A stretch of DNA of 64,000 bases from Escherichia coli. Its GTDB lineage: Bacteria > Pseudomonadota > Gammaproteobacteria > Enterobacterales > Enterobacteriaceae. A model generated the notes under the pieces. It was not told the DNA's origin and ran no database searches. It saw only the letters and a list, made by a program, of their open reading frames with translations. Location of the stretch: assembly GCF_003334385.1 (NCBI RefSeq), contig NZ_QOWN01000017.1; one strand, 5' to 3'. This document shows, one piece after another, positions 1,572 to 60,882 of the stretch. The translations under genes and the position numbers were made by a program. The stretch's first letter is position 1, and the number at the start of each line of letters is the position of its first letter.

Positions 1572-3386
1572 CTACTCTCCCTGTTTGCTGGCGGACGGCA
1601 GTTTGGCCGCTTTATTGACGTCATACCACCAGGTATCGATACCGAGGCTATAGATGGGGCGCACGGCCGGCTGGGAGAATTTATCCCACCAGGCGAGACG
1701 GTCTTCCGCCATGTACCACATTGGCAGCATGTAATAATTCCACGTTAATACGCGATCCAGTGCTCGCCCCAACGGCAGTAATTTTTCTTTATTTCCCTGC
1801 GCGGCAATAATTTGGTTGATCAGCGAGTCGATAACCGGGCTTTGCACGCCGGGGGCATTATAAGTGGAATTGATATATTCCGATGACCAGGAAATCTGTA
1901 AATCGGAACTGGGTCACGGCATCGCCCGCCATACGCGTGGCATCATGTCATAGTCGCGACTGCGCATGCGGTTAGTGATTTGCGAGTTATCCACCTTGCG
2001 AATGTCCATGTTGATACCTAGCCGTTGCAGGCTGTGCTGGAACGGCAATACCCACTGACTATTGCTGCTTGCGGGAAGCAATAATTCAAAGCTGAGTGGC
2101 TGACCCGTTGTGGCATTAACGCGTTGCTGACCCTTCAGCACCCAGCCCGCTTCGTTGAGAAGTTTGTCGGCTTTTAACAGGTTGTCACGATCGTAGCCAT
2201 CGCCTTTGGATACCGGCGGCTGGTAGATTTGTGTGAAGACTTCTGACGGTAGATCTTTTTTCATTGGTGCCAGAAGCACCAGCTCCGCGGCGTCGGGGTA
2301 ATTTCTGGCCGCGTATTCGGTATTCTGAAAATAACTGTTCGTGCGACTCCAGGCATTGTAAAACAACGCCTTGTTCATCCATTCAAAGTCAAAGGCGAGA
2401 GTGATAGCTTCCCGGACCCGGCGATCGCTGAATACCGGACGTTGGATATTAAACGCCAGCCAACGCGTATCTTGGGCTGATTCGTTCTTTTGCTCATCTT
2501 TGATGATGTATTTTTTATCGAAATTTTTACCGGTATAACGCGTGGCCCAGTTTTTGGCGTCGTTTTCCATACGCAAATCAAAGGCACCTGCTTTAAACGC
2601 TTCAAAGGCGACATTATCATCGAGGTAATAATCGTAGCGAATGGTGTCGAAATTCCAGCGTCCACGGTTTACCGGTAAGTTTGCTGCCCAGTAATCTTTC
2701 ACACGGGAATAGACAATATTTTGCCCCATTTTCCAGGACGTAACGCGGTACGGACCACTGGCAAGCGGAGGCGTGGCGAGCGGGTCGCTAAGTTTGTGAT
2801 CCTTCCAGTACTTTTCTGGAAATACCGGCAGCGAAAACAGACTCAGCATATCTTCTTTGCCGGGTTTAGCTAACTCAATGCGCACGGTTAACGGTGCAAT
2901 GGCTTTGACGGTGGTGCCTTTGTAGACCAGACGAAATTGCGGCACGCCTTCGGTCATAAATTTTTGAAAAGTAAACTCTACATCGCGGGCAGTAATGGGC
3001 GAACCATCATGAAAACGGGCGCGCGGATTAATAGCGACCTCCACCCAGGAATAATCGTCAGCATAGCGTGCGCTTTCAGCAATCAGCGGGTAATAACTGC
3101 CTGGTTCGTCATCGGAAGTCGTAAATAGCGTGTCGTACAGCTGCTCGGTGCGTGCGCCCGGGTTGCCGCGCAGTGCATAGCGGTTGAAATTATCGAAGGT
3201 GCCGAGGGCTGACAACGTTATCTGCCCACCTTTTGGCGCGGCGGGGTTCACATAATCAAAATGGTTGAAATTAAACGCGTACCGGGGTTCGCCCAGCACG
3301 GCAAAGGCATAGCTTTCCTTGATAGCCTGCGCCTGCACACCAAAGGTGAACAGAGCGATAAACAGCAGCAGTATGCGCACAATCAT
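1572..3386 (-). pseudogene. yejA: periplasmic substrate-binding protein YejA interrupted by an in-frame TGA (stop at 1914-1916)
   Basis: Track ORFs 1914..3392 (492 aa) and 1572..1847 (91 aa) are in the same frame, separated only by TGA at 1914-1916; together with start at MIVRILLL (3386) they span 604 codons, the length I recall for intact YejA. Confidence 0.7.
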
Positions 3387-58358: not shown

Positions 58359-59277
58359 ATTTAGCCATGTCAGCAAACTGTTCGGCGCACAAAAAGCCGT
58401 TAACGATCTCAATCTCAATTTTCAGGAAGGGAGTTTTTCGGTGCTGATTGGCACATCTGGCTCCGGCAAATCCACCACCCTGAAAATGATTAACCGCCTG
58501 GTGGAGCATGACAGCGGAGAGATCCGCTTTGCCGGAGAAGAAATTCGCTCGCTGCCAGTACTGGAGTTGCGCCGCCGGATGGGCTATGCCATTCAATCTA
58601 TTGGCCTGTTCCCCCACTGGAGCGTGGCGCAAAACATCGCTACCGTGCCGCAATTACAAAAATGGTCGCGGGCGCGGATTGACGATCGTATCGACGAATT
58701 AATGGCGCTACTGGGGCTGGAGTCAAATTTGCGTGAGCGTTATCCGCATCAGCTTTCCGGTGGTCAGCAGCAACGTGTGGGAGTGGCGCGTGCACTGGCT
58801 GCCGATCCGCAAGTCTTACTAATGGATGAACCTTTTGGCGCACTGGACCCGGTAACGCGCGGCGCGTTGCAACAAGAGATGACGCGCATTCACCGTTTGC
58901 TGGGGCGTACCATTGTGCTGGTCACTCATGATATTGATGAGGCGCTACGGCTGGCAGAACATCTGGTATTGATGGATCACGGTGAAGTAGTGCAGCAGGG
59001 CAATCCGCTGACGATGCTGACTCGTCCGGCGAATGATTTTGTCCGCCAGTTTTTTGGACGTAGTGAACTGGGTGTGCGCCTGCTTTCGTTACGTAGTGTG
59101 GCGGATTACGTGCGTCGCGAAGAACGAGCAGATGGTGAGGCACTGGCAGAAGAGATGACGCTACGCGATGCGCTCTCTCTGTTTGTTGCGCGGGGATGCG
59201 AGGTGCTGCCGGTGGTGAACATGCAGGGCCAGCCTTGCGGCACGCTGCATTTTCAGGATCTGCTGGTGGAGGCGTAA
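58351..59277 (+). CDS. yehX: osmoprotectant ABC transporter ATP-binding protein YehX
   Basis: 308 aa; Walker [10 protein letters not shown], signature LSGGQQQR, Walker B LLMDEP. Confidence 0.85.
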
Positions 59278-59281
59278 GCGT

Positions 59282-60013
59282 ATGAAGATGTTGCGCGATC
59301 CGCTGTTCTGGCTCATTGCTCTGTTTGTGGCGCTGATTTTCTGGCTGCCTTACAGCCAGCCGCTGTTTGCTGCCTTGTTCCCACAACTGCCACGACCCGT
59401 TTATCAGCAAGAAAGTTTTGCAGCTCTGGCACTGGCTCATTTCTGGCTGGTGGGAATTTCGAGTTTGTTTGCGGTGATCATTGGCACTGGTGCCGGAATT
59501 GCTGTCACTCGCCCGTGGGGCGCGGAATTTCGCCCACTGGTGGAAACTATTGCCGCCGTTGGACAGACTTTTCCGCCCGTCGCAGTGCTGGCGATCGCCG
59601 TTCCGGTGATCGGCTTTGGTCTGCAACCAGCGATTATCGCCTTGATCCTTTACGGTGTGCTGCCCGTCCTGCAGGCGACACTTGCCGGGCTGGGAGCGAT
59701 TGATGCCAGCGTGACAGAAGTTGCGAAAGGTATGGGAATGAGTCGTGGTCAGCGACTGCGTAAGGTCGAGCTACCGCTGGCGGCTCCGGTGATTCTGGCG
59801 GGCGTGCGAACTTCGGTGATTATCAACATTGGTACGGCGACGATCGCCTCAACGGTAGGGGCCAGCACGCTGGGTACGCCCATCATCATCGGGCTTAGCG
59901 GATTTAATACCGCGTATGTGATCCAGGGGGCGTTACTGGTGGCACTGGCGGCGATCATCGCAGACCGCCTGTTTGAAAGGCTGGTGCAGGCGCTTAGCCA
60001 GCACGCAAAATAA
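59282..60013 (+). CDS. yehW: osmoprotectant ABC transporter permease YehW
   Basis: 243 aa polytopic permease. Confidence 0.85.
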
Positions 60014-60101
60014 AGGTATAACCTGCGAGCATGACGCCACCAATTCCGCCTAACGCCATAAACAGGAACAGGGCGATGACCCCAATTTTAGCTATGCGCA
60101 T
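59994..60101 (-). CDS. yohO: small membrane protein YohO (35 aa)
   Basis: Minus-strand [38 protein letters not shown] overlapping the yehW 3' end convergently by 20 nt; absent from ORF track (under 60 aa). Confidence 0.6.
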
Positions 60102-60160
60102 AATGCACTCCTTATGTTAACGAAAGGATTGTACAGTAAAGCGCATTTGTTAACGAATCA

Positions 60161-60845
60161 TTAAATGCCGAGTGGGAAAATATCATGGCCTTGTTCTTGC
60201 CAACTGGTGAGTTGCTGCTGTTGGGCGGAGGTTCGATTTTCACCGCACCACACCAGCAATGTACGGCCTTCGAATAGTTCAGGGCGTAGTTGATTGAGCG
60301 AGTGGGCGAGGACATCAATGCGCCATCCTTGTTGACTGGCAATCCAGCCCTCCAGCCACAGACGGGTGGTATCCTGAATATTCCAGCCAACCACCAGCGC
60401 ATCTTTACCCTGTTTTTTACGTGCCGAAGCCAGACAAATGGCGATGTAGTTGATCAGTACGCCGTCGAGGATCGCCAGCAGCGCCTGGAGAGTCGGTTGT
60501 TGGCACTGAAGCCGTCGGCGCAGAGGAATAAACAGATGTGTGGTGAGTGTCTGGGCGGGGTAATCCTGACCGCGCTCTTTGATCCACGTTCGCAGGCTAT
60601 GTAGATTGCCGCTTTGCAGGTAAGTCAGTAATGTTTCTTGCTGATCGCGCCAGCCGTTCTGCACATCAACATTTTCATTACTGAGCAGCATTTTAACTTT
60701 GCTGACCTGCACGCCGTTGTCGATCCAGCGTTTGATCTCGCGGATCCGGTCAATATCGGCATCGTTGAACAGCCGATGACCGCCGTCTGTCCGTTGCGGT
60801 TTCAGCAATCCGTAACGCCTCTGCCACGCGCGTAACGTGACAGGG
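60161..60845 (-). pseudogene. mlrA: MerR-family regulator MlrA (YehV), 3' fragment truncated by prophage insertion
   Basis: Minus-strand frame encodes ...PVTLRAWQRRYGLLKPQRTDGGHRLFNDADIDRIREIKRW... but the N-terminal HTH start is missing; similarity to MlrA ends near 60845, where integrase-adjacent phage DNA begins. Confidence 0.8.
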
Positions 60846-60882
60846 ATTAAGGGTAAACTAATTGATTTTGCAAGTTTTTATT

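Follow-up and report, generated by a model that had tools for sequence, protein, structure and literature searches.

Related Arrangements in Escherichia coli

Convergent genes with overlapping transcripts have been described in Escherichia coli as excludons, and the yohO–yehW pair is itself a listed member of this class. ExcludonFinder (NAR 2025) includes it among 165 convergent excludons of E. coli MG1655, with transcript overlap in at least 50% of 58 RNA-seq samples. Like the other listed pairs, it is convergent, its transcripts overlap, and no terminator separates the genes. The hallmark of an excludon is reciprocal repression, however, whereas yohO–yehW has been assigned on the basis of transcript overlap, with a mapped 3′ end on the yohO strand only. 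The same table contains pmrR–basS and ymiD–pdeR, to which the present locus is likened by this listing. In these pairs, a small membrane-protein ORF that is missed by length filters abuts a larger gene at its 3′ end or extends into it. Genes of this group, like yohO, were found by means of ribosome-binding-site models and conservation.

Two further kinds of system resemble the locus in part. Bidirectional intrinsic terminators are found at the corresponding place, where two convergent transcription units meet, but are absent between yohO and yehW, where termination of yohO is associated with Rho. Type I toxin–antitoxin loci, such as hok/sok, ibs/sib, and ldr/rdl, share with yohO a small hydrophobic peptide gene and an antisense transcript. 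In contrast to these loci, yohO has no dedicated antitoxin sRNA, shows no sign of toxicity, occurs in a single copy, and is broadly and vertically conserved.

The closest described counterpart is the K-12 gene (b4542). Its protein is identical to the one analyzed here, it has the same neighbors (mlrA upstream and yehW convergent), and the overlap with yehW has the same length of 20 nt. The two strains show no difference at the overlap; in the strain studied here, mlrA is interrupted by a prophage.

Geometry and Annotation of the Locus

The window, a stretch of 64,000 nt of E. coli DNA, carries yehW at 59282..60013 on the plus strand and yohO at 59994..60101 on the minus strand. The yehW gene encodes a protein of 243 aa ending in ...LSQHAK, assigned to the permeases by its family matches and the RefSeq annotation. 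Its 3′ end reads ...CTT AGC CAG CAC GCA AAA TAA, with the stop codon TAA at 60011–60013. The yohO gene encodes a single-span small membrane protein of 35 aa (UPF0387 / NF010225), with an ATG complementary to 60099–60101 and a TAA stop complementary to 59994–59996. Both the sequence and RefSeq place the two genes on opposite strands with their 3′ ends facing, in a tail-to-tail arrangement. Their coding sequences overlap on the two strands by 20 nt (59994..60013), where codons 30–35 and the stop of yohO lie opposite codons 238–243 and the stop of yehW.

This geometry is not specific to one assembly. The RefSeq entry for 100% identical DNA (L001) contains both coding sequences with an identical 20-nt overlap, and in K-12 MG1655 the genes lie at 2215657..2215764 (yohO) and 2215745..2216476 (yehW), again overlapping by 20 nt. 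The names, coordinates, and convergent overlap proposed in the first-pass annotation consequently agree to the base with the sequence, RefSeq, and K-12. Complete E. coli genomes contain DNA identical at 100% over 59282–60900, and 5424 of 5426 genomes possess the region. K-12 and the window do not differ over the interval that begins 60 nt before the yohO ATG and ends 340 nt after it. Because the DNA around yohO is identical, experimental coordinates from K-12 can be transferred to the window.

The same annotation had also called the small protein invisible to size-filtered ORF calling. This is correct for any filter set above 35 aa, such as a default list with a 60-aa limit, which misses yohO; it does not hold for PGAP and EcoGene, which already annotate the gene.

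Evidence That yohO Is a Functional Gene

The length of the yohO reading frame proves nothing by itself because the surrounding 3 kb contain 49 ORFs of at least 20 aa. This abundance, together with the lack of a Pfam family matching YohO, is what could be said in favor of regarding the minus-strand ORF as a product of chance and the overlap as an annotation artefact. Such an explanation is contradicted by several independent observations. The YohO sequence scores 80.1 bits with the NCBIfam equivalog NF010225 (PRK13681), above the curated cut-off of 57, and its residues 1–35 align to positions 1–35 of the 35-position profile. A Shine–Dalgarno sequence, AAGGAG, lies at 60108..60113 on the minus strand, 6 nt before the ATG. 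Among 40–52 distinct orthologous upstream regions, AGGA is invariant and the following G nearly so, and the ATG and the Shine–Dalgarno sequence are conserved in all loci. Pairwise pN/pS in the yohO frame ranges from 0.07 to 0.17, which indicates purifying selection specific to this frame. Taken with published Ribo-seq coverage of yohO and detection of the protein by top-down mass spectrometry (2025 top-down proteomics study), these observations exclude a chance ORF as a candidate and leave it practically no probability. The mapped 3′ end discussed below, the ribosome coverage, and the detected protein together indicate that the minus-strand ORF is both transcribed and translated.

The properties of the protein fit the description of a small membrane protein that the first-pass annotation had given. 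Its GRAVY value is 1.58, and it has one hydrophobic span; the best 19-residue window (2.41) covers residues 8–26 and is flanked by R2/K5 and R33. An 11-residue core is invariant across the alignments, and the sequence contains a glycine-rich packing motif. In published work citing Hemm 2008, YohO is called membrane-bound. No informative match to YohO was obtained among PDB sequences. The yohO level has been reported to be lower under anaerobiosis in Shigella.

The small size and hydrophobicity of YohO also raise the question of a type I toxin–antitoxin-like module, in which a small hydrophobic toxic peptide would be restrained by an antisense RNA, here the 3′ end of yehW. The likeness is superficial and lies in the pairing of a short hydrophobic ORF with an overlapping transcript from the other strand. 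What runs antisense to yohO is the 3′ portion of an operon mRNA and not a dedicated sRNA, and no Rfam family was found in 58500–61500. Moreover, yohO is a vertically conserved single-copy gene with a strong and accessible Shine–Dalgarno sequence, and it is expressed in ordinary cultures. An ASKA yohO clone induced with IPTG came through a growth-based screen alive. A leader hairpin sequestering the Shine–Dalgarno sequence (UCCUU / AAGGA) was considered and rejected; it shows no covariation (71.5% vs 70.6%), and 82 of 500 shuffles were as good. A toxin–antitoxin function is consequently highly improbable.

Distribution of the YohO Family

The YohO family is small and tight, with 17 matches among 1.84 billion cluster representatives, while a separate scan of one genome per species found orthologues in 136 species. 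The comparative set consisted of 80 retrieved loci from Enterobacteriaceae and Erwiniaceae, in each of which yohO, yehW, and mlrA were located. The genera covered are Escherichia, Salmonella, Citrobacter, Klebsiella, Raoultella, Kosakonia, Enterobacter, Phytobacter, Trabulsiella, Pluralibacter, Shimwellia, Erwinia, and Pantoea. The alignments show members of about 34–37 aa with one hydrophobic span and a conserved core of 11 residues. The genomic context in the window is the orthologous one, with yohO downstream of mlrA and convergent with yehW. The yehW gene adjoins yohO in 71 of the 80 loci, in one of them in a broken form, and in 69 of 80 mlrA precedes yohO in the same orientation, usually at a distance of 51–74 nt.

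The nine loci in which yohO has no adjacent yehW are of the Erwinia/Pantoea type (L029, L034, L037, L047, L052, L069, L073, L078, and L079; positions about 2400–2730 in each), and six of them also lack mlrA. In these loci, the box GCGCTATA(A/C)T is kept upstream of yohO, and in most of them a G+C-rich hairpin, for example GGCGGCA...TGCCGCC, follows shortly after the yohO stop. They illustrate the form that a yohO unit takes on its own, free of any overlapping gene.

Two loci of the set deserve separate mention. In Trabulsiella odontotermitis strain 01 (L057, about 2590–3340), DNA homologous to the yehW 3′ end is present in a broken frame, the best ORF ending 135 nt from yohO, which is a frameshift or an assembly error. 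A locus labelled Chryseobacterium sp. 18061 (L067, CACSKA010000001.1) carries an enterobacterial mlrA–yohO–yehW arrangement, with a YohO and a YehW tail as in Citrobacter sp. 18056 (L066) from the same project; it is probably a mislabelled or contaminated assembly.

The close linkage could be taken as a sign of co-function, with YohO serving the YehZYXW transporter as a regulatory or accessory subunit, a role that certain small membrane proteins play in other transporters. The adjacency in 71 of 80 loci, which includes the locus with a broken yehW, would agree with such a partnership, as would the glycine-rich packing motif in a single-span membrane protein. However, the two convergent genes do not share a transcript, the nine loci described above have kept yohO in the absence of an adjacent yehW, and linkage to mlrA is about as tight. 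In addition, no Pfam or PDB relative hints at a function. A partnership of this kind is accordingly considered quite improbable.

Conservation of the Overlap and Its Constraints

The convergent overlap is kept in 70 of the 80 species loci, with a length of 14, 17, 20, or 26 nt. An overlap of 20 nt occurs in 32 loci (Escherichia, Salmonella, Citrobacter, and others) with a YohO of 35 aa, and one of 26 nt in 31 loci (Klebsiella, Raoultella, Kosakonia, and others) with a YohO of 37 aa ending in ...RGGVG. The 14-nt overlap is found in six loci of Erwinia and Pantoea with a YohO of 34 aa, and the 17-nt overlap in a single locus.

Selection on the two frames is markedly asymmetric. Within the overlap, pN/pS is 0.07–0.16 in the yohO frame vs 1.0–1.9 in the yehW frame. 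Along yehW, the eight codons ending in FERL have values of 0.14–0.16, and the next three, which precede the overlap, 0.83–1.05. The constrained portion of YehW stops at ...FERL, whose codons end at 59984, 9 nt from the yohO stop. These ratios point to neutral evolution of the YehW tail beyond FERL, which comprises the last 9–11 residues (59985..60010 in the window), and such a tail would be dispensable. The register of the frames contributes to this pattern. As read from the sequence, the wobble position of yohO faces codon position 2 of yehW, so that synonymous changes in yohO recode the YehW tail.

The position of the yehW stop follows from the same relationship. The yohO codons Phe30–Ile31 (TTT ATT) occupy 60009..60014 on the minus strand, and their complement contains the yehW stop TAA at 60011–60013. 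In all 71 overlap sequences, the bases of the yehW stop pair with yohO codon 30 or 31 (NTT/NTC, encoding Phe, Leu, or Val) and with the Ile codon that follows it, which begins with A. The stop is TAA in 58 sequences and TGA in 13, the latter being those in which the yohO Phe codon is TTC. It always lies 88–91 nt after the yohO start, a constant spacing that is due to the conserved YohO dipeptide fixing the yehW stop. An early stop in the neutral yehW tail that would resolve the overlap was found nowhere in the species set, and just three unconstrained codons offer that chance.

Given the coding constraint on YohO and the neutral YehW tail, conservation of the overlap does not require that the overlap itself be under selection. 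On comparative grounds, the overlap looks locked by constraint and not selected, although locking of this kind may be compatible with additional selection.

Transcript Ends and Termination

The yehW gene belongs to the osmF–yehYXW operon, which encodes a glycine betaine ABC transporter, and osmF, yehW, and mlrA are RpoS-dependent. A genomic-SELEX peak has been reported inside yehW (approximately at 59600 in the window; K-12 U00096.2 2214150) with an intensity of 4.0, in the section on promoters of the extracytoplasmic-stress sigma factor (PMC5493296).

At the junction itself, a consensus scan gave no intrinsic or bidirectional terminator on either strand, and there is no GC hairpin with A and U tracts. 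Folding of the junction is unremarkable (z = −0.10 and −0.75 for the two strands). Since there is neither intergenic space nor a terminator, each transcript must end inside the other gene.

On the yohO strand, such an end has been mapped. Supplementary file 1 of Adams et al. 2021 (eLife), which has one tab per growth condition and in which yohO is entered three times, lists a Term-seq 3′ end at MG1655 2215813(+) as “primary yohO, antisense yehW”. Converted to the window, this end corresponds to 59945 on the minus strand, 49 nt past the yohO stop and inside yehW in antisense orientation. With its end at this listed position, the yohO mRNA spans, on the opposite strand, the final 69 nt of the yehW coding sequence. 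Supplementary file 2 of the same work lists a Rho termination region at K-12 2215995(+), with a Rho score of 5.6 and p = 9e-16; its center in the window is 59763 on the minus strand, again antisense to yehW. The C/G ratio on the strand antisense to yehW is 1.3 in this region. According to the account in Adams et al. 2021, exonucleases trim Rho-terminated RNAs back.

A 7-bp G+C-rich hairpin (GGCGGUC-UGCGAU-GAUCGCC) is predicted at 59950..59969 on the minus strand, 5 nt before the 3′ end of the yohO mRNA. The fold has no U tract, and the hairpin probably serves to block trimming by 3′ exonucleases and is not an intrinsic terminator. A covariation test lends weak support to it as a selected structure: 78.4% of cells are paired vs 75.2% after shuffling, and about half of the species have broken closing pairs. 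The coding constraint on AAII.DR accounts for most of the signal. The data are consistent with yohO transcripts that would end in a Rho-dependent manner inside yehW and would then be trimmed to the hairpin.

For the opposite strand, the entries for this region in the Term-seq tables of Adams et al. 2021 include no yehW-strand 3′ end. The yehW strand is C-rich immediately after the yehW stop, with a C/G ratio of 1.37 over 60014–60100. To act, Rho first needs a stretch of untranslated, C-rich RNA that is tens of nucleotides long. Transcripts of yehW would be expected to run through the greater part of yohO, if not all of it, and may extend as far as its promoter.

The first-pass annotation held that the overlap of the two genes implied antisense transcriptional interference. 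Overlapping transcripts are indeed documented by both Term-seq and ExcludonFinder; the further step to a regulatory role is not needed, as the comparative data explain the overlap without one having been selected. If the overlap were maintained as a selected excludon, convergent transcription would keep YohO and the YehZYXW transporter from being made together, by collision of RNA polymerases or by promoter occlusion, in combination with RNase III cleavage of a duplex of at least 69 bp. The inclusion of yohO–yehW in the published E. coli “excludome” supports such a proposal, as does the lack of a terminator between genes of which one has an mRNA ending inside the other and a Rho region lying further in. 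The putative yohO promoter is located just about 115 nt past the yehW stop, and the arrangement is conserved across two families. Excludon pairs are, moreover, less co-expressed in single cells than non-excludon pairs, which favors a regulatory reading, although this was reported for the class and not for yohO–yehW specifically.

Several considerations weigh against selection for exclusion. No expression data tying yohO to yehW were found. The yohO gene is independent of yehW, its promoter box being kept and a downstream hairpin gained where yehW is not adjacent. The coding constraint on YohO and the neutral YehW tail fully explain the conservation of the overlap. A detector of transcript overlap is also bound to flag any pair whose coding sequences overlap; because the overlap reaches both coding sequences, transcript overlap is unavoidable and is not evidence of design. 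An excludon maintained by selection is consequently possible, if rather unlikely. A more elaborate version treats the overlap as a selected switch: RpoS-induced transcription of osmF–yehYXW would cross yohO and its promoter, transcription of yohO, terminated by Rho within yehW, would trim yehW, and the cell would make either YohO or the full transporter. Such a switch could possibly be explained by an action of YohO on the YehZYXW transporter or on the neighboring MlrA/curli pathway, and it is regarded as doubtful.

The Region Upstream of yohO

An alignment of the mlrA–yohO intergenic regions points to a putative −10 box, TACAAT, at 60133..60128 on the minus strand, conserved across genera; in most genera it reads TATAAT or TATACT. 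The transcription start would be near 60121, and the −35 element is weak. A conserved TTAACA lies 14 nt upstream of the −10 box, too close for a normal −35. The consensus promoter scan made no call at the −10 box. No transcription start site of yohO was found in the literature consulted, and the supplements of Dar & Sorek 2018, Conway 2014, and SMRT-Cappable-seq do not contain the gene. A separate yohO promoter is nevertheless inferred because the −10 box is conserved and is kept, with a downstream GC hairpin, in loci without yehW and mlrA. These features argue for yohO as an autonomous transcription unit; co-transcription with mlrA would be the alternative.

Two copies of TTCGTTAACA, at 60157..60148 and 60124..60115 on the minus strand, lie 33 nt apart and flank the −10 box. 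The TTAACA core of both copies is conserved in most genera, and they may represent a candidate binding site for a regulator.

The putative promoter (60128..60153, minus strand) can also be written as TTAACA-12 nt-TGTACAAT. The MlrA site at csgD is AAAGTTGTACA(12N)TGCACAATTTT, and the MlrA paralogue BluR binds a GTACA motif (PMC3509220). Compared with the MlrA site at csgD, the right half of the promoter sequence matches at 8 of 11 positions and the left half at 5 of 11. A count of ACA-N12-TGYACAAT over the 64-kb window gives a single occurrence vs 0.15 expected, with at least one match in 14 of 100 shuffles. In most other genera, the right half reads CGTATAAT. That MlrA, the product of the adjacent gene, might act on yohO is a weak lead of post hoc origin, resting on motif resemblance.

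The mlrA gene itself is not intact in the window. A remnant of it lies at 60161..60862 on the minus strand, upstream of yohO on the same strand and separated from it by 59 nt. The gene is interrupted by a lambdoid prophage; going back from the mlrA stop, the sequence matches K-12 perfectly as far as about 60845, where the identity is lost. Phage DNA takes the place of the first 15 codons (MALYTIGEVALLCDIN), with which the MerR-type HTH begins. The prophage occupies the 5′ end of mlrA and extends over 60845–64000, with an integrase at 60883..62169 on the minus strand followed by excisionase, exo, and bet. RefSeq nonetheless annotates a MlrA of 234 aa with an ATT start. In STEC, curli and biofilm deficiency is known to result from prophage insertion into mlrA (PMC3874044, PMC5931665). 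In K-12, the Term-seq entries for this region include an ORF-internal 3′ end at 2214904(+), 38 nt into mlrA, an indication that transcription is attenuated or terminates prematurely early in the gene. In the present strain, the prophage splits the segment carrying this end from the remainder of mlrA.

Interpretation and Significance

The evidence is best accommodated by a tail-to-tail overlap, already annotated, of two independent functional genes, in which the overlap of the coding sequences is a constraint-locked by-product of end-to-end abutment and yohO forms an autonomous unit. This explanation is considered probable. The yohO gene would be expressed from its own putative promoter, with the −10 box at 60133..60128, and its strong Shine–Dalgarno sequence would direct translation of 35 codons for a single-span membrane protein. 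On the other strand, yehW closes the RpoS-dependent osmF–yehYXW operon, and translation past FERL continues through 9 unconstrained codons to a stop complementary to the YohO Phe30–Ile31 codons. YohO would set the sequence in the overlap, and the YehW tail would follow.

At the level of transcription, the yohO mRNA has its mapped end 49 nt inside yehW, behind the hairpin, and Rho-dependent termination has been located about 230 nt into yehW. A Rho-terminated yehW transcript would cross yohO and possibly reach the putative yohO promoter about 115 nt downstream. When both are made in one cell, the yohO and yehW mRNAs would be complementary over at least 69 nt, so that polymerase collision or RNase III cleavage, the “excludon” effect, would be possible. 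Such an effect would probably be a side effect of modest size and not the reason for the overlap.

The gene yohO, its overlap with yehW, its translation, its 3′ end, and the excludon listing were all already public, in annotation or in papers. The contribution of the present analysis is small: the overlap is kept in two families, selection on it is asymmetric, and the yehW stop is pinned by the Phe/Leu–Ile codons of YohO.

The locus is a textbook case in three respects. Length-filtered ORF calling overlooks real small membrane proteins; an antiparallel overlap turns the synonymous changes of one gene into amino-acid changes of the other; and convergent genes without a terminator depend on Rho. 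Beyond housekeeping, its importance is slight, as the arrangement is old, conserved, and ordinary. If interference with the RpoS-dependent betaine transporter were true, it would add one more validated excludon in E. coli and provide a first functional handle on YohO, while the general view would be unchanged.
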